A DNA stretch of 64,000 nt from an uncultured Bacteroidales bacterium (GCA_964592225.1 CAZQCO010000003.1:15200-79199); one strand, 5' to 3'. Shown: positions 42,611 to 64,000, counted from the first letter of the stretch. Notes: generated by a model not told the origin, from the letters alone. Numbers and translations are program-made.

Positions 42611-43084
42611 ATGGGAAACAGGACCGAACGTTTATTAACCATTAAAGAATTGATTTCTTCCCTGAAGATCTCCAGTCAGGAAGAATTACTTGGTCTCTTA
42701 GAGGAACGTGGATTGACTTACACACAGGCCACGCTTTCAAGAGATTTAAAATTTTTAAAAGTAAATAAGATAGCAGATCCGGAGAAGGGATATATATATG
42801 AGCTCCCGGAGCAGCATGTGGTTATGAGTGATGTGGCAGAATCATATGCTGCTCAGGGATTTATATCCATAAAATTCGCAAATAACCTGGGAGTTATCAA
42901 AACTATGCCAGGATATGCCCCAAGTATAGCGTCGATGATTGATAAATCAAATCCTTTCGAAATTGTCGGGACTATTGCGGGTGATGATACAATCCTGATT
43001 ATCCCTCACGATAATGTATCTGAGAGGGATGTTTTAAATACTCTTATACTTATAATCCCTGAGTTAAAAGAAAAACTGGGATAG
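42611..43084 (+). CDS. argR: arginine repressor
   Basis: The winged-helix N-domain shows 'TQATLSRDLKFLKV'. The C-terminal arginine-binding motif shows 'VGTIAGDDTILII'. Confidence 0.9.
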   Translation: MGNRTERLLTIKELISSLKISSQEELLGLLEERGLTYTQATLSRDLKFLKVNKIADPEKGYIYELPEQHVVMSDVAESYAAQGFISIKFANNLGVIKTMPGYAPSIASMIDKSNPFEIVGTIAGDDTILIIPHDNVSERDVLNTLILIIPELKEKLG

Positions 43085-43192
43085 CATATTAGGGTTGACC
43101 GTTGAGTAGTTACATAACTCTTTTCATAGATAAACTAAGCTATACTGCACTTCGGTCAACCTGTTTTCTGTGAATGATTTAAAAAACAATAT

Positions 43193-44437: not shown

Positions 44438-44445
44438 TCTGATTT

Positions 44446-45777: not shown

Positions 45778-45783
45778 TAGTTT

Positions 45784-46458
45784 ATGTGTAAAAGCAGGAT
45801 TGTAGTGCGTATCGAAATATCGACACTTTCAAATTCCGATGGGAAATTTAACCATCAGAAAATGGATCGTTTGGCCATGGTTCTGTCCAATTTAAATAAC
45901 AGTGGCAAACAGGTAATTGTGGTAAGTTCGGGAGCTATTGCTCTAGGAATAGATAAAATGAAAATAAAAAATCAACCAACAAGCTATGAGGAGATGCAGG
46001 CTATTGCTGCCATTGGACAGGCAGAACTCATCAGGTTTTACCAACATTATTTCGATCAGTATAACCAAATAGTGGCTCAGGTGTTACTCATTGGTGACAT
46101 TATGGATAATGCCACGAGGGTTAAGAATACACAAAATACATTTGATACACTACTTGAAATGAATATCATTCCGATAGTGAATGAAAATGATGCTGTATCT
46201 CTTACGGATATTGAACTTGATGATAATTATGTACTTGCATTGCAAGTAGCAAAAATCACTAAAGCAGATATTATCCTCATTAAAATGGATACCAATAGCA
46301 AATTCATTATTCAACCGCGTAATAAACTGAATGCAAAACTTGTTTCTGACGAAACCCAACTTTTTAAAGAACTGGAGAAGACCTGTAATGAAATAGTTTG
46401 TGACGATTCTGCAGAATTATTTTTTCCTGAATCGATTAAAGATATTGTCTTGAATTAA
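45784..46458 (+). CDS. truncated, degenerate glutamate-5-kinase (amino-acid kinase family) paralog
   Basis: 224 aa, collinear with the N-terminal ~210 aa of the adjacent ProB ('VVSSGAIALG', 'AAIGQAELIRFY', 'VAQVLL', 'IIPIVNENDAV'). Catalytic or nucleotide-binding blocks are altered: 'VKVGTSSL' becomes 'VRIEISTL' and 'FGDNDTLSA' becomes 'LDDNYVLAL'. The C-terminal 'GTGGMVTK' block is absent. Confidence 0.6.
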   Translation: MCKSRIVVRIEISTLSNSDGKFNHQKMDRLAMVLSNLNNSGKQVIVVSSGAIALGIDKMKIKNQPTSYEEMQAIAAIGQAELIRFYQHYFDQYNQIVAQVLLIGDIMDNATRVKNTQNTFDTLLEMNIIPIVNENDAVSLTDIELDDNYVLALQVAKITKADIILIKMDTNSKFIIQPRNKLNAKLVSDETQLFKELEKTCNEIVCDDSAELFFPESIKDIVLN

Positions 46459-46463
46459 AGCTA

Positions 46464-47282
46464 ATGATAAACATGAGGGAAAGTTTTAAATATAAAAAGC
46501 GAATAGTAGTTAAAGTCGGAACATCTTCACTATCCTATGCAAATGGGCGATTAAACTTTCAGCGAATTGCTAATTTATCATATGTCTTAAGTGCTCTTCG
46601 TAATCGAAATCTGGAAATTGTTTTGGTAAGTTCAGGGGCGATTGGTGTTGGAGCCGGCCGTCTGGGAATGCTAAACAAACCTGTTGAACTTTCAAAAAAA
46701 CAGGCGTTGGCAGCCGTCGGTCAGGCAGAATTGATAAAGATTTATCAAAAATTTTTCGAAGGATATAATCAGACTGTGGCACAGGTTTTACTTACAAAAG
46801 ATATAGTTACTATACCCGACAGACATCAGAATGCGAAAAGTACGCTACTAAAGTTAATGGAGATGGGGATCATTCCAATAATCAATGAGAACGATACCAT
46901 TTCTACCTACGAAATAGAATTTGGCGATAACGATACACTTTCAGCCAATGTTGCTCAACTCATAGAGGCCGATCTCCTTATTTTACTTAGCGATATCGAC
47001 GGATTATATTCTGCTGATCCGAAAAAAGAAGATAAAGCAGAAATTATCCGCTCGGTAGATAAGATCACTCCCGAACTGGAAAAACTGGCTTCGGGGACAG
47101 GCACATCATTTGGAACCGGCGGAATGGTTACCAAGATATCTGCGGCTAAAATTTGCATCGATGCCAATATCGATACCATTATAACTAATGGGAACGATCC
47201 TTCGATTATATTTGATATTCTTGAAGGGAAAGAAGTAGGAACTCATTTCGTTGCTAATAAATCTGTTATTTTAAAAGATTAA
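46464..47282 (+). CDS. proB: glutamate 5-kinase (short form without PUA domain)
   Basis: All expected blocks are present: 'RIVVKVGTSSL', 'VSSGAIGVG', 'IINENDT', 'FGDNDTLSA', 'GTGGMVTKISAAK'. Confidence 0.9.
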   Translation: MINMRESFKYKKRIVVKVGTSSLSYANGRLNFQRIANLSYVLSALRNRNLEIVLVSSGAIGVGAGRLGMLNKPVELSKKQALAAVGQAELIKIYQKFFEGYNQTVAQVLLTKDIVTIPDRHQNAKSTLLKLMEMGIIPIINENDTISTYEIEFGDNDTLSANVAQLIEADLLILLSDIDGLYSADPKKEDKAEIIRSVDKITPELEKLASGTGTSFGTGGMVTKISAAKICIDANIDTIITNGNDPSIIFDILEGKEVGTHFVANKSVILKD

Positions 47283-47289
47283 CACTATC

Positions 47290-48540
47290 ATGAATCAGGT
47301 TTTACTTCAGAAAGGGAATAATGTAAAAACTGCTGCAAGAAAATTGGTGAAATATACCACCGATAAAAAGAATGCTGCGCTTGCATTAATTGCTGAAGAA
47401 ATTGAAGTTCATCGCAACGATATAAAAAAAGCAAACGCAATTGATTTAAGTCAGGGTAAGAAAAAAGGGCTCTCAACAGCTTTTCTTGACCGTCTTGAAC
47501 TTACCGATAAGCGGATCGATGGGATGATCAGAATTTTGCACGATGTAATAAGTCTGAAAGATCCTGTCGGAGAAATTATTGGAATGAATACTTTACCCAA
47601 TGGATTGCGGGTTGGACAAATGCGAATGCCCCTTGGGGTTATTGGGATTATTTTTGAATCACGGCCAAATGTATGTATCGAAGTAGCTGCGCTTACAATA
47701 AAATCGGCAAACGGAGTAATATTACGGGGTGGATCGGATGCGATTCATTCCAATATTGCACTCACAAAAATCATTAAAGCCGGATTAAAAAAGGCAGGAC
47801 TTCCTGAATCCTCAGTAGAAGTGATCGAAGATACCGATCGTGAGTCAGTAAAGGAGCTTCTTCGCATGCGCGATTATATCGATATTATTATCCCACGCGG
47901 GAGTTTAAATCTGATTCGTTTTGTAGAGGAACACTCCTTAATACCAGTAATTCGTCACGATCTGGGAATCTGTCATACCTATGTTGATGAATATGCCGAT
48001 ATGGATATGGCAATATCGGTGGCTTATAACGCAAAAGTTCAACGACCAGGAGTTTGCAACTCAATGGAAACTTTATTGGTGCATCAAAAAATAGCTGCTG
48101 AGTTTTTACCAAGAATTAAAACTGAATACGACAAAGCCGGAGTGGAACTTAGAGGATGTCGAAAAACAAAAAAATATTTATCCGCTATAAAAGACGCAAC
48201 CGAAGAAGACTGGAAAACAGAATACCTCGATCTGATATTATCGATAAAAACAGTAAACTCTGTCGATGAGGCCATCGATCATATTAATAATTATGGTTCG
48301 CATCACAGCGATGCTATTATAAGTGAAAATTATACCCATTGTATGCAATTTCTTAATGAAGTGGATTCAGCGGCCTGCTTTATTAATGCGTCTACACGTT
48401 TCACTGATGGTAATGAGTTCGGACTTGGAGCTGAAATGGGGATCAGCAATCAAAAACTTCATGTTCGCGGTCCAATGGGATTAAAAGAATTAACCTCAGC
48501 CAAGTACATTATTTTTGGTAGCGGACAAATTAGAAATTAA
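47290..48540 (+). CDS. proA: glutamate-5-semialdehyde dehydrogenase
   Basis: 416 aa. Contains 'IFESRPNV', catalytic-Cys block 'RPGVCNSMETLLVH' and 'NASTRFTDGNEFGLGAEMGIS'. Confidence 0.95.
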   Translation: MNQVLLQKGNNVKTAARKLVKYTTDKKNAALALIAEEIEVHRNDIKKANAIDLSQGKKKGLSTAFLDRLELTDKRIDGMIRILHDVISLKDPVGEIIGMNTLPNGLRVGQMRMPLGVIGIIFESRPNVCIEVAALTIKSANGVILRGGSDAIHSNIALTKIIKAGLKKAGLPESSVEVIEDTDRESVKELLRMRDYIDIIIPRGSLNLIRFVEEHSLIPVIRHDLGICHTYVDEYADMDMAISVAYNAKVQRPGVCNSMETLLVHQKIAAEFLPRIKTEYDKAGVELRGCRKTKKYLSAIKDATEEDWKTEYLDLILSIKTVNSVDEAIDHINNYGSHHSDAIISENYTHCMQFLNEVDSAACFINASTRFTDGNEFGLGAEMGISNQKLHVRGPMGLKELTSAKYIIFGSGQIRN

Positions 48541-48655
48541 GAGCAATTTAGAAAAATTAAAAAACAAAATATGAGCTATAAATCAGACCAGATATATTAT
48601 CAATTCATTGTTTGGCAACACTGTCCTAAAATTTAGTACAAACTTGAAAATTTAA

Positions 48656-50011
48656 ATGGCTATGGATTTTCTTAATCATTTGGATCAGCTTTCAATCGAT
48701 GTATCGCAAATCGATAAAGAATTATTTACACGATTCGATGTCAAACGGGGACTTCGAAATCAGAATGGATCAGGAGTACTTGTCGGGCTCACTAATATTG
48801 GTGATGTTGTTGGCTATGAAAAGGAAGGAGATAAAGTGATCCCGGCGCATGGACGTTTATATTATCGCGGTCTTGAGGTGACTGAACTGGTAAAGGGATT
48901 CCAGGAAGACGGACGGCATGGATATGACGAAACCGTATTTTTGCTGCTATCAGGTAAACTTCCTACTAAGGATGAATTAATGCGCTTCACCTCATATTTA
49001 GCAGGATTACGTGATTTACCACAATATTTTACGAAAAACATGATACTCTCTTTACGAGGAAGAAATATCATGAATATGTTGGCAAGGTCAGCATTGGTTT
49101 TGTATACAATGGACGATTATGCCGAGGACCATTCACATATGAATGTTCTGCGCCAGTCGCTCGATCTTATCGCTAAATTCCCGGTCATCACAGCCTATTC
49201 ATATTTTGGATTCCGGCATTCCTATCAGCGAAAATCGCTTATTATTCGTCATCCGGAGCCAGGTCTCAGTACGGCTGAAAATTTCTTGTATATGATTAAA
49301 GGCGACAGATACACGCGTTTGGAAGCAGATATTCTAGATCTTAACCTGGTGCTTCATGCCGAGCATGGCGGAGGTAACAATTCAACTTTTACAACACGTG
49401 TTGTCAGCTCAGCCGGAACCGATACCTATTCAACAATTGCAGCAGCCCTTGGTTCCTTAAAAGGTTTCTTACACGGTGGAGCCAATCTTCAGGTGGTAGA
49501 AATGATGAGAGATATAAAGAAAAATGTGAAGGATTGGACAGATAAAAAAGAATTATCAGAATACTTAATAAAAATTCTGCATGGACATGCCGGAGATGGT
49601 TCAGGGAAAATATATGGAATTGGACATGCCATATATACCTTATCGGACCCAAGAGCCATACTCTTAAAACAAAAGGCTATGGAACTTGCTGAGGAAAAGG
49701 GTAAAACAGATGAATTTTCACTTTACGATAATATAGAACAGCTTGCGCCTGAAGTATTAGCCAAATTCAAAGGAGGCAATAATGTTAAGACTGTAAGTCC
49801 GAATGTAGATTTTTATTCAGGATTTGTATATCGTTGCATCGATCTTCCCATGGAACTATATACTCCGATTTTTGCTGTTTCACGTATGGCAGGGTGGTGT
49901 GCACATCGTATCGAGGAAATTACATCCAGCTCAAAACGTATTATTCGGCCTGCCTATAAAAATGTATACGGACAGGTAGAATACCAGAAGCTTGAAGAAA
50001 GAACTCGATAA
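48656..50011 (+). CDS. gltA: citrate synthase
   Basis: Citrate synthase blocks are present: 'LVLHAEHGGGNNSTF', 'GIGHAIYTLSDPRA', 'PNVDFYSG'. Confidence 0.88.
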   Translation: MAMDFLNHLDQLSIDVSQIDKELFTRFDVKRGLRNQNGSGVLVGLTNIGDVVGYEKEGDKVIPAHGRLYYRGLEVTELVKGFQEDGRHGYDETVFLLLSGKLPTKDELMRFTSYLAGLRDLPQYFTKNMILSLRGRNIMNMLARSALVLYTMDDYAEDHSHMNVLRQSLDLIAKFPVITAYSYFGFRHSYQRKSLIIRHPEPGLSTAENFLYMIKGDRYTRLEADILDLNLVLHAEHGGGNNSTFTTRVVSSAGTDTYSTIAAALGSLKGFLHGGANLQVVEMMRDIKKNVKDWTDKKELSEYLIKILHGHAGDGSGKIYGIGHAIYTLSDPRAILLKQKAMELAEEKGKTDEFSLYDNIEQLAPEVLAKFKGGNNVKTVSPNVDFYSGFVYRCIDLPMELYTPIFAVSRMAGWCAHRIEEITSSSKRIIRPAYKNVYGQVEYQKLEERTR

Positions 50012-50089
50012 GCAATTGTATATTTATACAAAACTTGTTCATATTTATAAAAAATACTTTTAATTCTTTTCTGAATTAAAGAAATATAC

Positions 50090-50097
50090 TATATTTG
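50090..50097 (+). promoter_or_regulatory. Bacteroides-type -7 promoter box upstream of the gltB leader
   Basis: TATATTTG matches TAnnTTTG. It lies 168 nt upstream of the gltB ATG and ~20 nt upstream of the sORF at 50118. Confidence 0.4.
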
Positions 50098-50117
50098 CTA
50101 GCTCTAAGACACCCATT

Positions 50118-50171
50118 ATGAAGACTAAAAAGAACGATAAATTTTTTAATAAAAAGACAGATTCTGCGTAA
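50118..50171 (+). other. 17-codon upstream sORF (MKTKKNDKFFNKKTDSA) in the gltB leader
   Basis: The ATG-to-TAA frame was read directly. It lies between the candidate promoter and the leader terminator. There is no evidence of translation. Confidence 0.25.
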
Positions 50172-50198
50172 AAATGGTTTTTAAATAACTTATTATTT

Positions 50199-50230
50199 AA
50201 GCCATTCTCGCATGTCAGAATGGCTTTTTT
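50199..50230 (+). terminator. strong rho-independent terminator 35 nt upstream of the gltB start
   Basis: A perfect 10-bp stem AAGCCATTCT (50199-50208) pairs with AGAATGGCTT (50217-50226) across an 8-nt loop. The T run extends to 50230. It is unidirectional, since the opposite strand has no T run. Confidence 0.7.
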
Positions 50231-50264
50231 ATAAACGATGGGTTGAATAAGAAAATAAAGTATT

Positions 50265-53200
50265 ATGATTAAAGGATTTCCAGAAGCACAGGGGTTGTAT
50301 GACCCTAATAATGAGCATGATAGCTGCGGAATTGGATTTGTAACCCAAATTAAAGGAAAAAAATCACACGATATCATTAAAAAGGGGCTTGAGGTTTTAG
50401 TGAATATGACTCACAGAGGAGCTGAGAGTGCTGATAATTTATCGGGCGATGGCGCAGGAATACTGATTCAACTACCACACGACTTTTTTATTCAGAAGGG
50501 TATCAGGGTGCCTGCAGAGGGTAGATATGGAACAGGTCTGGTTTTTCTTCCAAAGGACATAAAAAATAGAAAACAGTGTGAGGAAATTCTTTTAAATACC
50601 ATAACAAGTGAAGGTTTGGATGTTATTGAATTCACTGATGTAAAAGTTGATAATACAGTACTGGGAGAAATATCTCATGCCACCGAACCTTTTATTAAGC
50701 AAATATTCGTTACAGGTGACTATCCTGAACAGGAAATGCTTGAACGGAAACTATTTATAGCCCGTAAACTAACTGAAAGAGCTGTACGTGAATCTAATAT
50801 AAAAGAAAAAAAGGTATTTTATATTCCCAGTCTCTCATCAAAAATTTTTATATACAAGGGAATGTTAACTCCCGATCAGGTTGAAAGATATTTTGTTGAT
50901 CTGCGAGATCCCAATATAATTAGTGCTATTGCACTGGTACATTCACGTTTTTCAACAAACACTTTTCCAACCTGGGATTTAGCTCAGCCATTTCGATTTC
51001 TTGCACATAATGGAGAAATCAATACCATAAAAGGGAATCGTATGTGGATGACTGCCCGTGAATCGATAATGAAATCGGATTTGTTTGGCGATGATCTTGA
51101 AAAATTGTTTCCTATTATTGAACCGAATAAATCTGACTCGGCTTCTTTTGATAATGTACTGGAATTCCTGGTATTAACAGGTAAATCATTACCACATGCA
51201 CTAAGCATGTTAATACCTGAGTCGTGGAACGATAAAAATCCAATACCCCCTAGCCTGAAAGCTTTTTATGAATACCAGTCAACTCTGATGGAGCCCTGGG
51301 ACGGACCTGCATCGTTGGTCTTCAGCGATGGACGGTATATTGGCGGCACGCTCGATCGGAATGGTTTGCGCCCCTCGCGTTATATTATAACCAAAGACGA
51401 TTTAATAGTTATGGGTTCGGAGGTGGGTGTACAGATTTTCGAAGCGGAACAAATTAAAGAAAAAGGGCGCCTTCGTCCGGGTAAAATCCTGTTAGTCGAT
51501 ACAAAAATGGGTGTTATTGTACCTGATGAAGAAGTGAAGCACCAGCTGACCGACAGAAATCCTTATGCCCAATGGTTGGCTGAGAGCAGAGTTGAACTTG
51601 GAGAAATCAAAGTAAGAAAGCGGGTTCCCACCAGCCTTGGAGATAATTTTGAAGCATACCTGAGAGAATTCGGGTATACAAAAGAAGATATAGATTTTCT
51701 TTTAAAACCAATGGGATTGCAGGGTCAGGAACCGATTCATTCTATGGGCAACGACACACCTTTAGCACTTTTCTCCGATAAGCCACAACGCTTCTTCAAT
51801 TATTTTAAGCAGCTTTTTGCCCAGGTAACCAATCCTCCAATAGACCCAATTCGGGAAGGTCTTGTAATGGCGTTAACCAATTATATAGGATCGGTTTCAA
51901 AAAATATACTCGTCGAATCTTCAAGTCATTGCAAACTTATTAAGTTTCTTTCACCCATAGTTTCTAATACCGATCTGAACAAACTCCGAAATCTCAGGGA
52001 GGAAAATTTTTCCTATATTGATATCCCTATTCTTTTTCCTGCGAAAGGCAAAGGATTAGGTAAAGGTCTTGAAATGGCCCTGGAAGATATTTGCCAAAAA
52101 GCTGAGCAAGCTGTGGATGCCGGTAAAAACTTCATTATTCTGACCGACCGGGGCATTAATGAAGATATGGCTCCTATCCCTTCCTTACTGGCTACATCAG
52201 CTGTTCATCATCATTTAATACGTTCAAAAAAGCGTATGCAGGTTGGCGTAGTAGTAGAGACTGCCGAAGCCCGCGAAATAAACCATTTTGCGTTGCTTAT
52301 CGGATATGGCGCCAGTGTTGTAAATCCCTATGCAGCATTTGCTGTTATTGAAGATAAATGCCTTAAAGGTGAAATTGAAATAGATTACGTTATAGCACGC
52401 GAAAACTATATTAAAGCAATTGACAAGGGCTTATTAAAAATTCTTTCCAAGATGGGGATATCTACTTTAAGGAGTTATCATGGTTCTCAGATTTATGAAG
52501 CCCTGGGGATAGGCAATGAAATTATTGAGAAGTATTTTACAGGAACAGACTCTAGAATTGGTGGTATCGGTTTTGAGGAAACAGCAAAAGAAGTGCTGAT
52601 TAATCATTCCATTGCTTTCGGGAACGACCCGAAATTACTTCACGTACTTAAAACGGAAGGCATCTACCATTTTCGCTACGATGGTGAAAGACATGGATGG
52701 AATCCGGAATCGATCGGATTACTTCAATGGGCCACCCGGGCGAAAGATTACAACAAATTTAAAGAATTTACCACGCTGGTAGATCATGAAAATCGGAAAC
52801 CCCATTTTTTGCGTGGTTGTGTAAATATTAAAAAGTGTGATCCTATACCTATCGACGAAGTTGAAGCGGTTGATACGATCATGAAACGTTTTGTCACCGG
52901 AGCTATGTCATATGGATCAATAAGTAAAGAAGCACATGAGGCATTAGCCATTGCTATGAACAGGATTGGAGGCAAAAGCAATACGGGCGAGGGAGGTGAA
53001 GACACGGAACGATTTAAGCCGAGAGAAAATGGCACATGGGCTCGGAGTGCCATTAAACAGGTAGCTTCCGGACGGTTTGGGGTTACTACCAATTACCTGG
53101 TAAATGCCGACGAAATTCAGATAAAAATTGCCCAGGGAGCAAAACCAGGCGAAGGTGGACAATTACCGGGCTACAAAGTGGATAAAGTTATCGCCCGTCT

Positions 53201-54809
53201 ACGGCACAGTACACCGGGTATTACGCTGATATCTCCCCCACCTCACCATGATATTTATTCTATCGAAGATCTTGCACAATTGATTTTCGACCTGAAATGC
53301 ACAAACCCAAAAGCTAGAATTAACGTTAAACTGGTTTCTGAGAAAGGAGTTGGTACAGTTGCTGCAGGCGTTGCCAAAGCTTATGCCGACAGTATTACTA
53401 TTTCTGGTGCTGAAGGAGGTACAGGAGCAAGTCCTGCCAGTTCAATTAAACATGCCGGATTACCTATGGAACTGGGGATCTCTGAAGTTCAGCAAACCCT
53501 GGTTATGAACAATCTTCGTGACAGGGTTCGTCTGCAAACCGACGGGCAGCTGAAAACAGGACACGATGTGATTTATGCGGCACTATTGGGTGCTGAAGAA
53601 TTTGGATTTGCAACTGTAGCCCTGGTTGTGTTAGGGTGTATTATGATGAGAAAATGCCATCTGAATACCTGTCCTGTAGGTGTTGCCACACAAGATCAAG
53701 AATTGCGCAAGCGTTTTCTTGGTAAATCGGAGTTTGTAATAACTTACTTTAATTTTTTAGCACAGGAAATCCGTGAATATCTGGCCGAAATGGGATTTCG
53801 CAAATTCGATGATATTGTAGGACGTACCGATCTGCTGGAACAACGCTCTGATATTCAACACTGGAAAGCTTCGAAAGTTGATTTATCAAAAATACTCTTC
53901 CGTCCCAAAGAAGCCGATATTTACGAAAACCATTGCGTATGTTTCCAAAATCATAAAATAGAGGATATTATGGATCGCGGTTTAATAAAACAGGCTGCTA
54001 GTTCCATAAAAAACAAAAATAAAGTCTGGATTTCGCGCAAAATACAAAATACGGATCGAACGGTGGGAGCTATGCTATCGGGTGAAATATGTCTTGTATA
54101 CGGCGAAGAGGGGCTACCCGATAAAACAATAAATTGTATGTTCACCGGTTCTGCGGGACAGAGTTTTGGAGCCTTTCTTGTTAAAGGGCTTAATTTCTAC
54201 CTGGAAGGCGATGCGAATGATTATCTGGGAAAAGGATTGTCGGGGGGACGTATTATTGTTGTTCCTCCTAAAGGATCTATCTTCAAACCTGAAGAAAACA
54301 TTATCATCGGTAATACTGTCCTTTATGGGGCTACAGACGGTGAAGCATATATTCGGGGTGTTGCCGGTGGTAGGTTCTGTGTTCGAAATTCGGGGGCCAG
54401 AGCTGTTGTGGAAGGTGTAGGCGACCATTGTTGTGAATACATGACAGGTGGCTGCACTGTTGTTCTTGGACAAACAGGACGTAATTTTGCGGCAGGTATG
54501 AGTGGTGGAATTGCTTATGTCCTGAATCAGAATGGAAATTTCGATTATTTCTGTAATAAAGGCATGGTGGAACTTGGACCTATTTCCGACAGGGATGATG
54601 AAATGGAACTCCAGGAGATGATTAACAACCACCTGAATTATACTGGTTCGGAACTGGCAAGAGAAATCCTGGTGAACTGGGAAGTTTACCTTCCTCGATT
54701 TGTTAAGGTGATTCCTTTTGAATACAAAAAAATCCTTCAGGAAATTAAACTTGAACAAATAAAGAGTGAAATTGAAAAAACGGAGGACGAACCGCATTTT
54801 CAATATTAA
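50265..54809 (+). CDS. gltB: glutamate synthase large subunit
   Basis: 1514 aa. The Ntn-amidotransferase Cys appears in 'EHDSCGIGFV'. The central, FMN and 3Fe-4S domains show 'GEGGE', 'KIAQGAKPGEGGQLPG' and 'CIMMRKCHLNTCPVG'. A C-terminal GXGXG domain follows. Confidence 0.97.
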   Translation: MIKGFPEAQGLYDPNNEHDSCGIGFVTQIKGKKSHDIIKKGLEVLVNMTHRGAESADNLSGDGAGILIQLPHDFFIQKGIRVPAEGRYGTGLVFLPKDIKNRKQCEEILLNTITSEGLDVIEFTDVKVDNTVLGEISHATEPFIKQIFVTGDYPEQEMLERKLFIARKLTERAVRESNIKEKKVFYIPSLSSKIFIYKGMLTPDQVERYFVDLRDPNIISAIALVHSRFSTNTFPTWDLAQPFRFLAHNGEINTIKGNRMWMTARESIMKSDLFGDDLEKLFPIIEPNKSDSASFDNVLEFLVLTGKSLPHALSMLIPESWNDKNPIPPSLKAFYEYQSTLMEPWDGPASLVFSDGRYIGGTLDRNGLRPSRYIITKDDLIVMGSEVGVQIFEAEQIKEKGRLRPGKILLVDTKMGVIVPDEEVKHQLTDRNPYAQWLAESRVELGEIKVRKRVPTSLGDNFEAYLREFGYTKEDIDFLLKPMGLQGQEPIHSMGNDTPLALFSDKPQRFFNYFKQLFAQVTNPPIDPIREGLVMALTNYIGSVSKNILVESSSHCKLIKFLSPIVSNTDLNKLRNLREENFSYIDIPILFPAKGKGLGKGLEMALEDICQKAEQAVDAGKNFIILTDRGINEDMAPIPSLLATSAVHHHLIRSKKRMQVGVVVETAEAREINHFALLIGYGASVVNPYAAFAVIEDKCLKGEIEIDYVIARENYIKAIDKGLLKILSKMGISTLRSYHGSQIYEALGIGNEIIEKYFTGTDSRIGGIGFEETAKEVLINHSIAFGNDPKLLHVLKTEGIYHFRYDGERHGWNPESIGLLQWATRAKDYNKFKEFTTLVDHENRKPHFLRGCVNIKKCDPIPIDEVEAVDTIMKRFVTGAMSYGSISKEAHEALAIAMNRIGGKSNTGEGGEDTERFKPRENGTWARSAIKQVASGRFGVTTNYLVNADEIQIKIAQGAKPGEGGQLPGYKVDKVIARLRHSTPGITLISPPPHHDIYSIEDLAQLIFDLKCTNPKARINVKLVSEKGVGTVAAGVAKAYADSITISGAEGGTGASPASSIKHAGLPMELGISEVQQTLVMNNLRDRVRLQTDGQLKTGHDVIYAALLGAEEFGFATVALVVLGCIMMRKCHLNTCPVGVATQDQELRKRFLGKSEFVITYFNFLAQEIREYLAEMGFRKFDDIVGRTDLLEQRSDIQHWKASKVDLSKILFRPKEADIYENHCVCFQNHKIEDIMDRGLIKQAASSIKNKNKVWISRKIQNTDRTVGAMLSGEICLVYGEEGLPDKTINCMFTGSAGQSFGAFLVKGLNFYLEGDANDYLGKGLSGGRIIVVPPKGSIFKPEENIIIGNTVLYGATDGEAYIRGVAGGRFCVRNSGARAVVEGVGDHCCEYMTGGCTVVLGQTGRNFAAGMSGGIAYVLNQNGNFDYFCNKGMVELGPISDRDDEMELQEMINNHLNYTGSELAREILVNWEVYLPRFVKVIPFEYKKILQEIKLEQIKSEIEKTEDEPHFQY

Positions 54810-54841
54810 AAATATCAAAATCACTATTTAAGCAGATAATT

Positions 54842-56290
54842 ATGGGAAATCCAAAAGGGTTTATGACCATAGAGCGAAAGCCGGCAGGATATCGTCCAAA
54901 AGACGAAAGGGTTAAAGATTATAGTGAAGTTGAGCAGGTTTTAAACGAAAAGGACAGAAAAGATCAGGCCTCGCGTTGCATGGATTGCGGTATACCTTTC
55001 TGTCAATGGGGATGCCCTGTTATAAATAACATGCCCGAATGGCAGGATGCCATTTTCAGGGGTGACTGGCAGGAAGCAATAGATAATCTTCAGGTAACCA
55101 ATAATTTCCCCGAATTTACGGGTAGAGTTTGTCCGGCACCCTGTGAACATGCATGCACCCTGAATATTAATGAAGAACCTGTTACCATACGTGAAAATGA
55201 ATGTGCCACGGCCGATCAGGCGTTTGACAGGGGTCTGATAATACCAAGACCTCCGAAGCTACGTACAGGTAAAAAAGTTGCAGTAGTTGGCTCGGGTCCG
55301 GCAGGTCTTGCCTGTGCCGATCTTTTAAATAAGTGGGGACATACGGTTACTGTTTATGAAAAAGATGAAGCAATAGGAGGTTTACTTCGGTATGGGATTC
55401 CTGATTTCAAGCTTGGAAAAAACGTTATCGACCGGCGGCTGAATATTCTGCTGGCCGAAGGTCTTCAGTTTAAAACCAATTGCCACGTGGGGGCCGATGT
55501 GAAAGGGGAAGAACTTCTTAAGAATTTTGATGCGCTGGTGTTGGCAATAGGTGCAATGAAACCAAGAGATCTGAATGTTGAAGGAAGAAAACTGAAAGGG
55601 GTGCATTTTGCCATGGAATTTCTTACCCAGCAGAACAGGGTAATTGCCGGTACAAAAATTGTGAATGGAGACCGAATTTCAGCTACCGGCAAAAATGTAC
55701 TGATTATTGGCGGCGGCGATACGGGTTCCGATTGTGTAGGGACTTCGGTAAGGCAAGGCGCTGCCAGTTTACAACAGATTGAAATATTGCCCAAACCTCC
55801 CGATAAGCGATCACTTAATAATCCCTGGCCATACTGGGCCAATACCCTTCGCACATCGTCATCGCATCAGGAAGGTTGTGAACGTTCGTGGGGGCTTAAT
55901 ACAACAAAGCTTATTGGAGATAAAGATGGCAATGTTAAAGCAACTGAAGTGGTGGAAGTGGAGTGGAAGAAGGAAAACCTGCCTGACGGCAAGGCAGGAG
56001 GCCAGTTTACGATGATAGAAAAGCCAGAAACAAAACGACAGATTAAAGCCGATCTTGTGCTGCTTTCCATGGGATTTGTACATTGTTATCACGAAGGTTT
56101 AGCAAGCGAGCTGGGAGTTACATTCGACAAACGTGGAAACATAGCAACCGATACATCCGATAGAACCTCCGGCGCAAAGGTATTTGCTGCCGGCGATGCG
56201 GTTTCAGGAGCCAGCCTGGTAGTAAGGGCCATTGCTTCGGGCCGGAAGGCAGCCGATAATGTGCATGATTACTTGATGAAGATTAAATAG
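54842..56290 (+). CDS. gltD: glutamate synthase small subunit (NAD(P)H-dependent)
   Basis: Fe-S Cys clusters are 'CMDCGIPFCQWGCP' and 'CPAPCEHAC'. Dinucleotide folds are 'VAVVGSGPAGLA' and 'VLIIGGGDTGSD'. Confidence 0.95.
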   Translation: MGNPKGFMTIERKPAGYRPKDERVKDYSEVEQVLNEKDRKDQASRCMDCGIPFCQWGCPVINNMPEWQDAIFRGDWQEAIDNLQVTNNFPEFTGRVCPAPCEHACTLNINEEPVTIRENECATADQAFDRGLIIPRPPKLRTGKKVAVVGSGPAGLACADLLNKWGHTVTVYEKDEAIGGLLRYGIPDFKLGKNVIDRRLNILLAEGLQFKTNCHVGADVKGEELLKNFDALVLAIGAMKPRDLNVEGRKLKGVHFAMEFLTQQNRVIAGTKIVNGDRISATGKNVLIIGGGDTGSDCVGTSVRQGAASLQQIEILPKPPDKRSLNNPWPYWANTLRTSSSHQEGCERSWGLNTTKLIGDKDGNVKATEVVEVEWKKENLPDGKAGGQFTMIEKPETKRQIKADLVLLSMGFVHCYHEGLASELGVTFDKRGNIATDTSDRTSGAKVFAAGDAVSGASLVVRAIASGRKAADNVHDYLMKIK

Positions 56291-56790: not shown

Positions 56791-57792
56791 ATGAAAATCA
56801 TGGCTGATTTAACAACAAAATACCTGGATTTCGAACTGAAAAATCCGATCATTGTGGGGAGTTGCAGTTTAACAGCATCGGTTGAGGATATTGTGCAATT
56901 GGAACAAAACGGAGCCGCTGCCATTGTTCTTAAATCGATTTTTGAAGAAGAGATTCTTCTTAAGGCGGATCACGATTTAAAAATAGCCAAGAAAAGCAAT
57001 TTTATCTATTCGGAGTTATCGGAAACGCTGGATTATATTGATATTCATACAAAAGTAAAGCGTCTGGGAGAATACCTGAAGATGATACAGGATGTAAAAA
57101 AGAAAATACTCATTCCTGTTATTGCCAGTATAAATTGTATCACCAATCTGGAATGGGCTTTTTTTGCAGCAAAAATCCAGGATGCGGGAGCCGATGCAAT
57201 CGAGCTGAATATTTCTCTTAATCCAATGGATACCGGAAAAAGGGATTATGAGAAATTGATCCAAAATATAGTAACCAAAGTTTTAAAATCAGTGAGCATC
57301 CCGGTTTCTGTTAAATTAAGCGATTGTTTTACCAATTTATCACATACTATCCTTGAAATATCAAAAACGGGAATTAAAGGGATAGTAATGTTTAACAGGT
57401 TTTATACCCCTGATATTGATATATATAATTTGAATATTGTATCGGGCAGAATGCATAGTTGTGAGACAGAATATGTTAAACCATTACGATGGATTGCGCT
57501 GTTGTCTGACAAAATTGATTGTAGTATTGCAGCTTCAACCGGCATTCACGATGCCAACACCGTGGTAAAACAAATACTGGCAGGGGCCGATGCGGTTCAG
57601 GTGGTCTCTGCGTTGTATCTGAATGGGAAAGGTTATATCAATCAATTGCTGACAGGTATTGAGAAATGGATGCTCGATAAAGGATATTTCTCTGTACAGC
57701 AATTCAAAGGATTGGCCAGCTACAAAAAGACCACCAATCCTGCAGCGTACGAGAGAATCCAGTTTATGAAGTATTTTGGAAGAATTGGTTAA
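56791..57792 (+). CDS. dihydroorotate dehydrogenase-like (DHOD/DHPD family TIM-barrel) protein of unknown substrate
   Basis: 333 aa. 'LKNPIIVGSCSLT', 'AIELNIS', 'PVSVKLS', 'NRFYTPDIDI' and 'IAASTGIHDA' follow the DHOD-family FMN-barrel layout. It resembles the uncharacterised 'DHOD-like protein' group rather than PyrD proper. The ATG at 56800 is an alternative start. Confidence 0.65.
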   Translation: MKIMADLTTKYLDFELKNPIIVGSCSLTASVEDIVQLEQNGAAAIVLKSIFEEEILLKADHDLKIAKKSNFIYSELSETLDYIDIHTKVKRLGEYLKMIQDVKKKILIPVIASINCITNLEWAFFAAKIQDAGADAIELNISLNPMDTGKRDYEKLIQNIVTKVLKSVSIPVSVKLSDCFTNLSHTILEISKTGIKGIVMFNRFYTPDIDIYNLNIVSGRMHSCETEYVKPLRWIALLSDKIDCSIAASTGIHDANTVVKQILAGADAVQVVSALYLNGKGYINQLLTGIEKWMLDKGYFSVQQFKGLASYKKTTNPAAYERIQFMKYFGRIG

Positions 57793-58023: not shown

Positions 58024-61000
58024 TTGAAGAGGGTCACGCGAAGTATCATTAGTAAACAGTTACAAACAGCTAATTGTATGCATAAATCAAATATAGTACA
58101 GGAAGACGATAACAAGGCGATAGTTATTCAAAAAATTTTAGCTCTTCTGAATAATTCTGATTCATTGGCTGCTTCGCTTCAGGAAATATGTAACCTATTG
58201 CCCGGAGCTTACGCAAATTCTGATTTGGTCTCAGCAAAAATGGTGATTGATGATAAGGTTTTTTATTCAAAAAATTTTAAAGAAACCCAATGGCAGGAAA
58301 AGCATGTTTTTGAAACACCGGGAATTAAAGAGTCGGCAGTTGAAATATATTTCACACATAATTATCTTGAAAAAGCGGGGCAGGATTTCATTCTCAAGGA
58401 CACTAATTTTCTGGTTGCGGTAGCTACTTTGTTAAGTGGAGCCATATCGCGTTCTGAGCTGAAAAAACTTCTCTATGAAAATACGGAACGGCTCAAGGAA
58501 TTGCGGGGAATCAACCGGACTGCCGATATACTCAGTCGTGGAACTACGTTGGAGGAGTCGTTACAGGAAATATGTTCCTTTCTACCTGAGGCCTGGCAAT
58601 ATCCTGAATTTACAGTTACTCGCATAACCTATGAAGATAAGGTTTTTAAAGGAAGAAATTTTAAGGTAACACCCTGGGTACAAAGCCAGCAATTCGAGAC
58701 TCCCGATGGGAAAAAAGGTCTTATCGAGATATACTACCTGAAAGAGTTTCCTTTATCTTTCGAAGGGCCGTTTCTTCAGGAAGAACGCAATCTCATCGAT
58801 AATCTGGCTGCACTTATTTCAGGAACTGTTTCAAAAAATACCCTGCAGAAATTATTGATCCAAAATACGGAAAGGCTGAAAGAATTGCGCGGCATTAACC
58901 AGACATCTTTGATTCTAAAGCAAAGCAAGTCGATCGAAGAATCACTGAAAATGATTTGTTCCATATTGCCCGAAGCCTGGCAATATCCTGAATATACGGC
59001 AGTGAGGATTATATTCGAGAAACAGGTTTTTTCCAGTATTAATTTTAAAAAAACCCGATGGGTTCAAAAACAGTTTTTTGAAACCCCGGGGCATAAAAAA
59101 GGAACAATAGAAGTTTATTATCTTAAAGAATTTCCACAGGAAGATGAAGGTCCTTTTTTAAAAGAAGAACGGAACCTTTTAATTAATCTGGCCAACCTGA
59201 TTGCGGGTTCAGCCAGCCGGCATGTGTTAAGCAAATTATTAAGTGAAAATAAAGAACGATTAAAGGAACTTAAAGCGATTAATCAAACCTCAAAAATTAT
59301 TGCTGAAGGAAAATCGATTGATGAAACCCTGCAGGAAATCTGTTCCATTTTACCCCGGTCGTGGCAATATCCCAAATATACCGGAACCCGGATCATATAC
59401 GAAAGAAAAACTTATGTCAGTCACGAATTTCCCGAAACAGTTTGGTCACAAAGGGAAAACTTCGTTACCATTGATAATAAAAAGGGTACTATCGAAGTAT
59501 TCTATCTCAAGGAATTCCCAAAAGAATATGAAGGCCCTTTCCTTAAAGAGGAGAGAAATTTGCTTATCAATTTAGGCAAGCTCATTAGCGGATATTTGAA
59601 TAATTACAAAGGGAGGGAAATGGTTCGTAAAAATATTTTCGGGGAACGTGAAAAGAGCCCTTCGACCGATTATCGCGAATCGCTGGTTCGGAATAAACAA
59701 CCTCTGCAGTTATTCTTTAACAAACAGGTACTCGATAAGTATATATATCTTGATATGATGAAATTTAAAGTGAAAGAGATCCTGTTTGTTGCCACATTAT
59801 ACGATGCCTTTACGTTACAGGCCGAAGATAATTTTTTCGAACGCTTTATGGGGGTAATTTATCAATACAGTTTATTCTCATTGCCACGTATCACAGGAGT
59901 AACTTCACCTGATGAGGCAATTGAGTTGCTTGATACTACCCGCTTTGATCTGGTGATTCTAATGGTAGGACTTGACAGGGAATCGCCAATAATGCTAAGT
60001 GAACGAATAAAACAACAGCAGCCCGATCTGCTGGTTTACCTGTTATTGAACCAGAGAAGTAATATCAACTATTTTGAAGAACTTGTTCCTCGATTGCCAT
60101 CGATCGATAAAATATTTACCTGGAATGGTGATTCGCAAATATTTTTTGCCATTGTAAAATCAACGGAAGATAAGGCAAATGTCGATAACGATACCATAAT
60201 CGGGTTGGTAAGGATTATTTTACTGGTCGAAGATTCGGCCCCATACTATTCAAAATACCTGCAGATTCTTTATTCTATTGTTTTCGATCAGGTTCAACAA
60301 TTATTACCGGAAGTTGAAAAAAATGAACTCGATAAGATTGCTAAAATGCGGTCGCGACCAAAAATACTTCTTGCCCGTAATTATGAAGATGCGCAATATA
60401 TCTTCAATAGGTATAAGGATTTTATGCTGTGTGTGATTTCCGATGTAGAGTTCGAAAAGGACGGGAAACTCGATAAAAAAGCAGGCATTAAGTTCATTAA
60501 TTACGTAAAATCGCACATTATTAACCTTCCAATTATTTTACAATCATCGGATGATAAAAATAAGAAACTGGCAAATGAACTGAAGGTCAGTTTTATCAAT
60601 AAAAATTCTGAAACCCTATTAACCGATCTGAAAAAATTTCTGACACAATACCTGGGATTCGGTGATTTTATTTTCAGGGATAAAGAGGGGAATCCCATTG
60701 CCAGAGCTCATTCGCTAAGAGAATTTGAAACATTGCTGCAAAAAATTTCCGATGAGACTTTCTACTTTCATGCACGCGAGAATCAGTTCTCGCTTTGGCT
60801 AATGGCCCGCGGAGAAATTCAACTTGCCAGAACACTGAATCCGATGAGGGTTAACAATATTTATAATATTAAAAATTCGAAATATCAGTTTCTTAAAACC
60901 CTTAAGCAGTACAAGGAAGAGAAAAAAAGGGGGAAAGTACTGAATTATGAGGAAACATCGACTTTAGACGAAAAGAACATCATTGCCTATTCTTCCGGAT

Positions 61001-62667
61001 CATTTGGAGGGAAAGGCAGAGGCCTTGCATTTATTAACGTACTGATTAATAATCTCGATTTTACTTCCTTTAACAAGAAAATCAATATACGTACTCCAAA
61101 AACAGTTATCATCGGGACCGATGAATTCGAAAGCTTTCTTGAGATCAATAGATTTTATGATGTTATCATTAATAAGAAAATAAACTATCAGCAGCTGAGA
61201 TCGTTATTTGTAAACGGAGAACTCTCCACAACACTTACCGAGAGGCTTAGAATATTTCTTGATCAGGTGGATCGTCCTGTTGCAGTGCGTTCGTCGAGCT
61301 TGCTTGAAGATTCTATTTCACAGCCTTTTGCAGGAATATTTGATACCTATATTATTCCCTATAAGAAGGGTATGCAAAAGAAAACCACACTCGAAAAACT
61401 ATCAAAAGCCATTAAACTGGTTTTTGCATCGGTATATTCCGATGAAGCCCGGGCCTATTTCAATACGATACATCATAAAATAGAGGAAGAAAAGATGGCA
61501 GTTGTGCTGCAGGAACTAGTGGGAAAACAGTTTGATAGTTATTACTATCCCCATATTAGCGGGGTGGCTCAATCCTATAATTTCTACCCGGTGGCTCACA
61601 TGGACCCCGAAGAAGGATTTGCTGTTATTGCATTAGGCTTGGGAGCATATGTTGTTGGGGGAAGAAATTCGTACCGCTTTTCGCCAAAATATCCAAAAGT
61701 TGAGATGTATTCCTCCAGAGACATACTAAACAGTTCACAGGTTCAGTTCTATGCACTCGATTTATCTAAAAAAAATATCGATTATGTAAAAGAGGGAGAA
61801 CTGGCTTCATTAACACTTCTTGATATAGATATTGCCGAGAAACAGGGAACACTTAAACATCTGGCTTCGGTATACAATTCAGAGAATGATCGTATCGATT
61901 CCGGCTTGAGCGCTGCAGGTCCACGGATAATGAATTTTGCTGATATTTTGAAATACGATTACATTCCACTGGCCGAAACTATTGATATGATGCTGACTAC
62001 TATTAAAGATGCCTTGGGATCTCCGGTCGAAATTGAATTTGCTGTTGATCTGAATCCAACTCTGAACGAACTGCCTTCTTTTTACCTGCTACAGGTTAAA
62101 CCTCTTGTAGGTAACCAGTATAGCAATAATATTGATTTTTCCCAGTTAGATAGATCCAGAATGATCCTGTACACGGAAACATCGCTTGGTAATGGTGAGT
62201 TTAACGATATATATGATGTAATATGTATCGATGTAACTCATTTCGATAAATTAAAAACACTCGAAATGGCTGCCGAAGTGGAATATCTGAACGATAAGCT
62301 TAAAAAACAGAATAGGCAGTATATACTTATCGGACCCGGACGCTGGGGCACACGCGATCGTTTTCTTGGAATACCTGTCAACTGGAATCAGATCTCAAAT
62401 GCCAAAGTGATTGTTGAAATCAGTCTGGCCAATTATCCGCTCGACTCATCGCTGGGATCGCATTTTTTTCACAATATTACTTCCATGAATATTGGATATT
62501 TCTCTGTTCTCGATTCAGCGGATAATAATTTTATTAAATGGAAATTACTGGACCGTGAAAATTTAAGCAGCCGGACCAAATATTTTAAGCACATTCAATT
62601 CGAAAAGCCGTTAACGGTTTTAATGAATGGTAAAACAAGAAGTGCTGCAATTATTGATAATTCCTGA
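58024..62667 (+). CDS. multidomain signalling protein: 4 tandem GAF-like sensor repeats, pseudo-receiver, receiver, PPDK_N-type ATP-grasp (PEP/pyruvate-binding) domain
   Basis: Residues ~26-537 hold four 128-aa repeats ('SLQEIC..LP.AWQYPE.T..RI...F..T.W....FETP..KKG.IE.YYLKEFP...EGPFL.EERNL'). Residues ~583-715 are receiver-like but lack the acidic pocket ('ILFVATLYDAF', 'DLVILMVGLD'). Residues ~729-876 form a receiver with 'ILLVEDS', 'LCVISDVEF' (D807, codon 60442-60444), 'PIILQSS' and 'FINKN'. Residues ~880-1547 carry PPDK_N hallmarks: 'SFGGKGRGLAFIN', 'PVAVRSSSLLEDSISQPFAGIFDT', 'MAVVLQELVG...ISGVAQS', 'VEIEFAVD', 'YLLQVKPL'. The start is either TTG 58024 (track) or ATG 58078. Confidence 0.8.
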   Translation: MKRVTRSIISKQLQTANCMHKSNIVQEDDNKAIVIQKILALLNNSDSLAASLQEICNLLPGAYANSDLVSAKMVIDDKVFYSKNFKETQWQEKHVFETPGIKESAVEIYFTHNYLEKAGQDFILKDTNFLVAVATLLSGAISRSELKKLLYENTERLKELRGINRTADILSRGTTLEESLQEICSFLPEAWQYPEFTVTRITYEDKVFKGRNFKVTPWVQSQQFETPDGKKGLIEIYYLKEFPLSFEGPFLQEERNLIDNLAALISGTVSKNTLQKLLIQNTERLKELRGINQTSLILKQSKSIEESLKMICSILPEAWQYPEYTAVRIIFEKQVFSSINFKKTRWVQKQFFETPGHKKGTIEVYYLKEFPQEDEGPFLKEERNLLINLANLIAGSASRHVLSKLLSENKERLKELKAINQTSKIIAEGKSIDETLQEICSILPRSWQYPKYTGTRIIYERKTYVSHEFPETVWSQRENFVTIDNKKGTIEVFYLKEFPKEYEGPFLKEERNLLINLGKLISGYLNNYKGREMVRKNIFGEREKSPSTDYRESLVRNKQPLQLFFNKQVLDKYIYLDMMKFKVKEILFVATLYDAFTLQAEDNFFERFMGVIYQYSLFSLPRITGVTSPDEAIELLDTTRFDLVILMVGLDRESPIMLSERIKQQQPDLLVYLLLNQRSNINYFEELVPRLPSIDKIFTWNGDSQIFFAIVKSTEDKANVDNDTIIGLVRIILLVEDSAPYYSKYLQILYSIVFDQVQQLLPEVEKNELDKIAKMRSRPKILLARNYEDAQYIFNRYKDFMLCVISDVEFEKDGKLDKKAGIKFINYVKSHIINLPIILQSSDDKNKKLANELKVSFINKNSETLLTDLKKFLTQYLGFGDFIFRDKEGNPIARAHSLREFETLLQKISDETFYFHARENQFSLWLMARGEIQLARTLNPMRVNNIYNIKNSKYQFLKTLKQYKEEKKRGKVLNYEETSTLDEKNIIAYSSGSFGGKGRGLAFINVLINNLDFTSFNKKINIRTPKTVIIGTDEFESFLEINRFYDVIINKKINYQQLRSLFVNGELSTTLTERLRIFLDQVDRPVAVRSSSLLEDSISQPFAGIFDTYIIPYKKGMQKKTTLEKLSKAIKLVFASVYSDEARAYFNTIHHKIEEEKMAVVLQELVGKQFDSYYYPHISGVAQSYNFYPVAHMDPEEGFAVIALGLGAYVVGGRNSYRFSPKYPKVEMYSSRDILNSSQVQFYALDLSKKNIDYVKEGELASLTLLDIDIAEKQGTLKHLASVYNSENDRIDSGLSAAGPRIMNFADILKYDYIPLAETIDMMLTTIKDALGSPVEIEFAVDLNPTLNELPSFYLLQVKPLVGNQYSNNIDFSQLDRSRMILYTETSLGNGEFNDIYDVICIDVTHFDKLKTLEMAAEVEYLNDKLKKQNRQYILIGPGRWGTRDRFLGIPVNWNQISNAKVIVEISLANYPLDSSLGSHFFHNITSMNIGYFSVLDSADNNFIKWKLLDRENLSSRTKYFKHIQFEKPLTVLMNGKTRSAAIIDNS
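58099..59634 (+). repeat. four intragenic tandem repeats with an exact 384-nt (128-aa) period
   Basis: The equivalent codons T154, T282 and K410 of '(T/K)ERLKEL' start at 58483, 58867 and 59251, each 384 nt apart. 'SLQEIC' of repeat 1 and repeat 2 are also 128 aa apart. By my hand count repeats 2 and 3 are ~60% identical at protein level; repeat 1 is the most diverged. Confidence 0.9.
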
Positions 62668-62672
62668 AAACT

Positions 62673-63326
62673 ATGATACAGGTAGGCATCTATGATGAAC
62701 ACAAACTGGCCCAGGAAGGATTAAGGTCACTTCTTGAGGAGGTAATGGATGTTGAAGTTGTATTTGCAGCCGAAACTAAAGATATGCTTTTTGAAAAACT
62801 GAATGCTGCCCCGGTTCATATACTCTTAGTGAATATTCACTCGCTTACTACCCAGTTTCTGAATGCCATTATGCAGGTGAATATCGGATTCCCAAAAATA
62901 AATATTCTGGTAATGTCCGCCCATAATGATGAAGACACTATTTTAAAAACAATAAAAACAGGGGCTAAAGGATTTCTCGCACGCAATACCGATAAGAATG
63001 AACTTATCGAAGCCATTTATTCCCTGCGAGGCGGACATGATTTCTACAGTAAGTCGATAACTCACTTATTGATAAATAAATATATCACACGATTACAGAA
63101 TGAAGGAAATGAAAATATAAATAATATTCAGAGTTTGAGTACCCGCGAAATTGAGATAATAAAATTATGGGGAAGGAGTCAGACCAATAAAGAAATTGCC
63201 GATAAATTGTTTATTAGCGTGAGGACAGTCGAATCGCATAAAAACCATATTATGCAAAAACTTAACCTGAAAACTGCGGTCGATCTGGTAAAGTTTGCTA
63301 TCAAGAATAATATCATTGAAATATAA
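62673..63326 (+). CDS. LuxR/NarL-family regulator with atypical (Asp-less) receiver domain
   Basis: The C-terminal GerE/LuxR HTH reads 'LSTREIEIIKLWGRSQTNKEIADKLFISVRTVESHKNHIMQKL'. The N-terminal receiver fold keeps 'YDEH' and 'ILVMSA'. The phospho-acceptor position reads 'HILLVNIHSL' (Asn54, AAT at 62832-62834). The conserved Lys position reads 'GFLARN' (Arg104). The gene starts 5 nt after the stop of the upstream gene. Confidence 0.85.
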   Translation: MIQVGIYDEHKLAQEGLRSLLEEVMDVEVVFAAETKDMLFEKLNAAPVHILLVNIHSLTTQFLNAIMQVNIGFPKINILVMSAHNDEDTILKTIKTGAKGFLARNTDKNELIEAIYSLRGGHDFYSKSITHLLINKYITRLQNEGNENINNIQSLSTREIEIIKLWGRSQTNKEIADKLFISVRTVESHKNHIMQKLNLKTAVDLVKFAIKNNIIEI

Positions 63327-63503
63327 CCCGATAAAGGCTTTCAGAAATTCACTTAATGTTATAGGTATTTCACGGAATCTGAACCTTTAGAATTATCACC
63401 TATAATAAAGTTAGTTATTTTCAGGCCCGAAAAGGGATAGATATCTTTTTTTGTCTTTTTCGATACTGGATAACAGAGGAGAAAAAGAACTTTTACAGAT
63501 TAA

Positions 63504-64000
<497 letters not shown>

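Follow-up and report, generated by a model that had tools for sequence, protein, structure and literature searches.

How ammonium assimilation is regulated in Bacteroidota is little understood, and to our knowledge these bacteria lack an NtrBC-type system. A stretch of 64,000 nucleotides from an uncultured Bacteroidales bacterium (GCA_964592225.1, CAZQCO010000003.1:15200-79199; hereafter the window, from whose first letter all positions are counted) raises the question of how a LuxR-type regulator whose receiver lacks the phospho-acceptor aspartate could be switched, and which gene it would control. The locus supplies a candidate for the regulator, a well-delimited putative operator ahead of gdhA and a conserved ATP-binding, sensor-like partner.

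The gene at 62673–63326 (plus strand) is an ORF of 217 codons, and Pfam and PDB comparisons identify its predicted product as a full-length NarL/LuxR-type regulator without the phospho-acceptor Asp. Residues 6–115 match Response_reg (PF00072; 42.9 bits against a cut-off of 30.2), and residues 153–209, encoded by 63129–63299 (plus strand), match GerE over the full profile (1–57 of 57; 65 bits); according to the conservation profile, this helix-turn-helix is the best-conserved part of the protein. Searching the PDB with phmmer gave full-length matches to VraR, NarL, ChrA, EvgA, RcsB and DevR, of which VraR is the best relative (E 3e-21), while VpsT matches over the C-terminal part only. The preliminary description of this DNA had aligned the receiver by eye, placing an asparagine at the acceptor position and an arginine at that of the conserved lysine, and had judged the rest of the fold and the GerE domain to be intact. 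HMMER alignments arrive at the same placement: with VraR (5hev), the query L-L-V-N54-I-H lies under I-L-M-D-L-V and G-F-L-A-R104 under G-Y-L-L-K, and with NarL (1a04), the N54 region lies under L-L-D-L-N and the R104 region under L-L-K. By both alignments, Asn54 (AAT, 62832–62834) occupies the phospho-acceptor position, which closes beta-3; it opens the Asn-Ile-His triplet AAT ATT CAC (62832–62840, plus strand), in which His56 (CAC) stands at D+2, and Arg104 (CGC, 62982–62984, plus strand) takes the place of the conserved Lys at the end of beta-5. The other active-site residues, namely the acidic pair D8 and E9 and the Ser/Thr position S82, are all retained, and the integrity of the receiver fold and of the GerE domain is borne out by Pfam and the PDB alignments.

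Whether Asn54 characterises a family or a single genome was addressed at two levels. Logan contigs from four independent salt-marsh metagenome runs cover 62400–63400 at depth 4–7; they differ from the window at 62484, 62741, 63155 and 63165 only, and the A at 62832 is the same in all four assemblies. Relatives were taken from the best 120 database matches (59–100% identity to the regulator) and from 80 species-representative genome loci (53–71% identity). Position 54 is Asn in 119 of these 120 homologues, with one Ser, and Asn in 74 of the 80 loci, with Val, Ser and Gly in two each; Asp is found in none of either set (0/120 and 0/80), and for this reason Asn54 is regarded as a family trait. 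Together with His56 (H in 119 and Y in one of the 120; H in about 71 of the 80, and Y, R or Q in seven), it defines the regulator subfamily as delimited by these alignments. The second change fared differently. Position 104 carries K in 73, R in 45 and S in two of the 120 homologues, and K in about 52, R in 16 and other residues in about ten of the 80 loci, so that the loss of Lys, which had been set beside that of Asp, does not extend to the family; judged from these counts, Arg104 is real but a lineage variant of a mostly kept Lys. The remaining pocket is nearly constant, with D8 in 120/120 homologues and 77/80 loci, E9 in 119 homologues (D in the other one) and 78/80 loci, and S82 in all 120 and all 80. 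Since Val, Ser or Gly can stand in for Asn54, and Tyr, Arg or Gln for His56, neither side chain can be chemically indispensable.

The wider clade was examined by an exhaustive HMMER search of cluster representatives. In the nearest roughly 30 clusters (39–53% identity), the pockets are degenerate in many different ways, and below about 40% identity canonical DD...D...S/T...K regulators predominate among the representatives. The regulator therefore sits within a wider Bacteroidota clade of pseudo-receiver LuxR proteins, and such varied degeneracy reads as the signature of a clade that would work without phosphotransfer. A metagenome scan with P0209 returned two loci only.

An aspartate-less pseudo-receiver is a known kind of protein and, alone, not very surprising. 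Asn makes up 16% of ALR substitutions (PMC4395418), and the change from K to R is common in pseudo-receivers (PMC12632262). RitR of Streptococcus pneumoniae likewise joins a receiver with Asn for the phospho-Asp to a DNA-binding domain and has no kinase in its operon, but it belongs to the OmpR type and its pocket is more degenerate (Lys10, Asp81), whereas the present regulator has a GerE/LuxR output, keeps D8, E9 and S82, and has its gene locked to a REC-PPDK_N partner. In SecR (RcsB-like), BldM/WhiI and VpsT/CsgD, a LuxR-type HTH stands behind an unphosphorylated receiver-like domain, as would be the case here; however, none of these is paired with an ATP-grasp/PPDK_N protein, and their sequence identity to the regulator is low. 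GlnR of actinomycetes is an OmpR-type orphan that keeps the Asp. It shares with the regulator an atypical character and, probably, a link to nitrogen, but no homology beyond the receiver fold; it has been described as an atypical response regulator acting on the genes of nitrogen assimilation (PMC3087709).

What distinguishes the locus is the gene directly upstream, at 58024–62667 (plus strand), which as the longest ORF encodes 1547 aa from a TTG. This start is uncertain: an in-frame ATG lies 18 codons on, at 58078, and the alignments of orthologues begin only at residues 11–55. Internal BLAST and repeat alignment resolve the N-terminal third into four tandem repeats of about 130 aa each (58063–59625, plus strand; residues about 14–534; consensus ERLKEL..IN.T...LP.AWQYP...EGPFL.EER.L), which have a weak profile match to the GAF domains of Aquifex Nlh1/Nlh2 (E 0.02–0.09) and are putatively GAF-like sensor domains. 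A word-indexed search with the repeat profile gave 24 short matches, and a few relatives named GAF domain-containing or carrying HisKA hint that such repeats are used in histidine kinases as well. Orthologues have two, three or four copies and a related family of about 1150 aa has one, so the repeat number evolves quickly.

Two receivers follow. The first, REC1, was placed by pattern at approximately 59761–60123 (plus strand); it has a weak Pfam Response_reg match at residues 623–675 and appears to be a pseudo-receiver, with an invariant Met647 (column M88 of the relatives' alignment) at the phospho-Asp place. The second, REC2 (60211–60633, plus strand; delimited by invariant columns, conservation and Foldseek), looks canonical, and its quintet E736, D737, D807, S841 and K860 is invariant throughout (columns E177, D178, D248, S282 and K301). 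An AlphaFold2 model of residues 560–1547 (pLDDT 78) was searched against the PDB; the best structural match of REC1–REC2 is the tandem receivers of PleD (Foldseek E about 1e-7), and the PPDK_N region matches the PPDK structures 1kbl and 5jvl. This PPDK_N nucleotide-binding domain of the ATP-grasp type (PF01326, 133.6 bits) occupies 61000–62112 (plus strand; residues 993–1363), and its motifs GGKGRG, RSSS..EDS and FAG are invariant.

The last part of the protein is a domain of about 185 aa (62113–62664, plus strand; residues 1364–1547) marked by the motifs GPGRWG and GSHFFHN, both invariant in 88 of the 88 relatives checked. No Pfam family matches it, a profile search of PDB sequences with residues 1355–1547 found no match, and its stand-alone AlphaFold2 model (pLDDT 85.6) has no significant Foldseek hit (best E 0.012, probability 0.35); it may be an undescribed domain. 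A G-S-H motif at a helix start had raised the suspicion of a divergent phospho-histidine swivel, which was dropped for want of PDB sequence or fold support, the PPDK/PEPS swivel domain being absent among the top 50 Foldseek matches. Likewise, a PEP/pyruvate TIM barrel was not detected: the Pfam and NCBIfam matches of the protein to PEP synthase models reach no further than the N-terminal part of these. Hence, the giant protein shares a homologous nucleotide-binding domain with PPDK, PEP synthase and rifampicin phosphotransferase but, unlike those dikinases, comes without a detected swivel and TIM barrel. With neither a phospho-carrier nor a PEP/pyruvate domain, the database label "pyruvate, phosphate dikinase" is not justified and is probably wrong. 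The combination of receiver and PPDK domains has been listed as "Bacteroides-like" in a census of two-component systems (PMC5847659), which was the only mention of REC-PPDK proteins in the literature searched, where a functional study was not found. The giant protein has the same receiver and PPDK nucleotide-binding architecture as the census entry, adding to it four GAF-like repeats as well as an Asp-less LuxR partner of its own.

The pairing of the two genes is close and nearly invariant. The ATG of the regulator begins 5 nt after the TGA of the giant gene (spacer 62668–62672, plus strand), and an orthologue of the giant protein (60–73% identity) lies directly upstream of the regulator in 79 of the 80 loci, the sole exception being a contig end. 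The intergenic gap ranges from −8 to a few tens of nucleotides, with 3, 4, −4 and −8 nt as the most frequent values among loci in which both ends could be placed. A metatranscriptome contig, X18 (248 nt, about 98% identical), covers 62469–62716 and so crosses the junction, which lends modest support to co-transcription, as it is a single contig and DNA carry-over is possible. The terminator scan detected no terminator-like site between or after the two genes; neither this nor the sigma-70 promoter scan was informative, as expected for Bacteroidota. Altogether, the adjacency, the short gaps and the RNA contig uphold the tight gene pair, which had been proposed at the outset to be one operon. 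Neither the operon nor the neighbourhood conserved around the regulator across the 80 loci holds a histidine kinase; the two that the window does encode (13699–16515 and 31040–33226) are more than 25 kb away, and an unlinked partner may exist.

The likely regulated gene is gdhA, encoding glutamate dehydrogenase, whose 5′ part (Pfam ELFV_dehydrog_N) occupies 63537–64000 (plus strand) of the window. It lies downstream of the regulator on the same strand in 71 of the 80 loci, mostly within 110–500 nt. Counting k-mers in the regulator–gdhA spacers gave the palindrome TTACGTG-AAA-CACGTAA, of the type TTACGTG-N3-CACGTAA, the perfect site being TTACGTGAAACACGTAA. The pattern TACGTR-N3-YACGTA has 46 matches in 1.27 Mb of related loci, where well under one is expected by chance, and all 46 stand about 100–150 nt before gdhA. 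The palindrome moves with gdhA in six loci in which that gene is displaced by 1.3–5 kb from the regulator; it occurs in L083, where gdhA comes after a 53%-identical regulator, and no copy stands ahead of gdhA in L081, L086 and L088, which lack the regulator. An inverted repeat of 15–17 bp with TAC...GTA edges resembles the sites of NarL-type proteins.

In the window, the alignment of spacers from close relatives places a degenerate copy of the palindrome, box A (TTCAGAAATTCACTTAA), at 63340–63356, and a second one, box B (ATAGGTATTTCACGGAA; also found by pattern match), at 63361–63377, 21 bp away centre to centre (both unstranded). Each departs from the 17-mer by 3–4 mismatches; box B corresponds to the TTACGTG-AAA-CACGTAA of more distant relatives, and the tandem arrangement at 21 bp is common to the window and its closest relatives. 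Within the 64 kb, CACKKAA-N14-CACKKAA is matched exactly just once, at boxes A and B. Downstream of the boxes lies a conserved AAAGTTA..TTA..TTT block, which may be a promoter. The co-occurrence of palindrome and regulator suggests that the regulator binds the boxes before gdhA. Three targets had been proposed for it; gdhA has gained plausibility from the conserved palindrome, but for gltB and the operon's own promoter no match precedes gltB or the giant gene in the 80 loci, and gltB control or autoregulation via this palindrome was rejected. The other palindrome matches in the window all have three mismatches and are no more numerous than chance. A half-perfect copy, TACGTGAAACAGCAA, not above chance, is located at 49872–49886 (minus strand) within the citrate synthase gene, at its 3′ end, some 390 nt ahead of gltB.

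Relatives of the giant protein extend the picture to loci with and without a regulator. The family of about 1150 aa, with its single N-terminal repeat, is 53% identical to the giant protein over its whole length. In Lentimicrobium (L082), a gene of this family and a LuxR regulator gene form a divergent pair, and that regulator, too, carries Asn in place of the acceptor. Other Bacteroidales lineages (L081, L087, L088 and L089) carry a tandem of two PPDK_N-REC genes, which in L081, L088 and L089 lies downstream of genes for 2-oxoacid:ferredoxin oxidoreductase (POR family). The tandem members measure about 1150 and about 990 aa, and L085 was grouped with these loci too. In L081 and L088 gdhA follows the tandem with no regulator directly beside it, and L086, again with no regulator, has gdhA and the PPDK_N gene in divergent orientation. 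A LuxR paralogue in L081 that adjoins a histidine kinase retains the Asp. The PPDK_N family is tied to the 2-oxoglutarate/glutamate node, with a regulator or with none.

On these observations we lean, with a confidence not far above even, towards a phosphorylation-independent pseudo-receiver factor that has gdhA under its control and is linked in function to the upstream protein. It would be co-transcribed with, and functionally coupled to, the GAF-like/pseudo-REC/REC/PPDK_N protein; its dimers would bind boxes of the TTACGTG-N3-CACGTAA type just upstream of the gdhA promoter, and this binding would set the expression of glutamate dehydrogenase. The position of the boxes upstream of the conserved promoter-like block would suggest activation of gdhA. 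The activity of the regulator would be set by the upstream protein, either through direct contact or through an ATP-dependent modification, and not by His-to-Asp transfer. By analogy with BldM–WhiI and with RcsB and its auxiliary partners, receiver–receiver contact is our preferred guess for the coupling; BldM and WhiI act via receiver heterodimers (PMC4125116). ATP-dependent modification of the regulator by the upstream protein is the alternative, and the more novel of the two. More generally, nitrogen assimilation in these Bacteroidota is probably under the control of the regulator, through a non-classical switch.

This reading is supported by the complete lack of Asp in both sets of relatives, the 79/80 pairing, the RNA contig, the linkage to gdhA in 71/80 loci and the 46 palindromes, and we also count in its favour the Lentimicrobium regulator with Asn, set against the kinase-linked paralogue that kept Asp. 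On the other hand, D8, E9 and S82 are more nearly invariant than a dead pocket needs, and P0245 is a related regulator with N-I-H that stands as an orphan; these, together with the regulator-less PPDK_N-REC genes at gdhA and the degenerate boxes of the window itself, count against it. Since PPDK_N-REC proteins occur beside gdhA without a regulator, the giant protein does not depend on this regulator as its output, and the view of the regulator as "the" output of this protein needs qualifying.

A bolder version, to which we give little credence, takes the pair as a two-gene module in which an ATP-grasp enzyme replaces the histidine kinase. The GAF-like repeats and the phosphorylatable receiver would then gate an ATP-dependent reaction, which would either form an acyl-phosphate on Asp807 or modify the Asp-less partner and so reach gdhA transcription. 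If true, such a module would be an unrecognised route of nitrogen/2-oxoglutarate sensing in Bacteroidota.

Against the coupled reading stands, as an unlikely yet substantial rival, an autonomous gdhA factor that is constitutive or controlled by a ligand in its altered pocket, its upstream neighbour being merely co-expressed and acting elsewhere at the 2-oxoglutarate/glutamate node. In its favour are the PPDK_N-REC relatives linked to gdhA and POR-family genes without the regulator, and the orphan relatives of the regulator. It also has a model in SecR, a NarL-type protein that forms a stable dimer, has no partner kinase and is encoded beside the metabolic genes that it activates (PMC13199381). 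However, adjacency in 79/80 loci with overlapping or near-abutting frames is tighter than co-regulation alone usually keeps, and the pairing recurs in Lentimicrobium in the other orientation.

We consider it improbable that the upstream ATP-grasp domain covalently modifies the regulator at His56 or at a Ser/Thr, a proposal that draws on the chemistry of the PPDK_N family, whose members normally phosphorylate a histidine carried by a mobile domain; no such domain was found in the giant protein, and His56 is present in 119/120 homologues beside the kept D8, E9 and S82. We know of no precedent for a PPDK_N ATP-grasp modification of such a regulator, and the conservation is less strict in the genome set, where His56 is replaced by Y, R or Q in 7/80 and Asn54 by V, G or S in 6/80; in P0241, furthermore, D8 is replaced by Cys and the linkage to gdhA is kept. 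The substitutions tolerated at positions 54 and 56 argue against His56 as an obligatory acceptor and equally against deamidation of Asn54, and the case for His56 as a universal alternative phospho-acceptor is weakened by them.

Deamidation would turn Asn54 into Asp, after which the protein would serve an unlinked histidine kinase as a normal response regulator. Spontaneous deamidation is at its slowest in certain sequence contexts, Asn before Ile, Met, Leu or Val among them. According to the ALR study (PMC4395418), reversion to Asp is possible for an Asn at this site, the remainder of the quintet (D8, E9, S82 and K/R104) is kept, and the two kinases elsewhere in the window might serve; yet Val, Gly or Ser replaces Asn54 in six of the 80 genomes and no kinase is conserved at the locus, so that this explanation appears highly improbable. 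Finally, the initial worry that AAT, one base from GAT, reflects a sequencing error or a strain variant is refuted, and with it the idea of a decaying pseudogene, by the four concordant assemblies, the absence of Asp from all 200 relatives, both homologues and genome loci, and a full-length ORF with a highly conserved HTH.

What is new here is that the regulator is near-invariantly paired with a GAF-like/REC/REC/ATP-grasp protein that is itself uncharacterised, and that a sharply conserved candidate operator stands before gdhA. The literature searched on PPDK_N with response regulators and on Bacteroidetes gdhA regulators contained no functional study and did not cover the pair. The locus holds three receivers, the canonical one with Asp807 and two without the aspartate, carrying Met647 and Asn54, and so offers a compact system for the study of pseudo-receiver switching, which a review of pseudo-receivers terms a mystery (PMC12632262).

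The genomic setting is centred on glutamate, with gdhA downstream and, upstream, argR, argG, argH, two amino-acid kinase genes, a proA-like gene, citrate synthase, gltB, gltD and a dihydroorotate-dehydrogenase-like gene. From argR to gltD (42611–56290), this glutamate-family cluster is contiguous on the same strand and leads into the regulator locus; its proA-like gene is an aldehyde dehydrogenase, and one of the amino-acid kinase genes encodes just 224 aa. Farther away, the minus strand carries an ORF of 951 aa (22026–24881) to which Pfam assigns no family at E ≤ 1e-6. The dihydroorotate-dehydrogenase-like gene (56791–57792; NCBIfam PRK07565, 371 bits) lies between gltD and the giant gene, and in L001, L003, L004 and L016 its counterpart comes after a paralogue of gltD (about 33% identity), which suggests that the gltD paralogue and the dihydroorotate-dehydrogenase-like protein form a separate two-subunit oxidoreductase linked to the locus.
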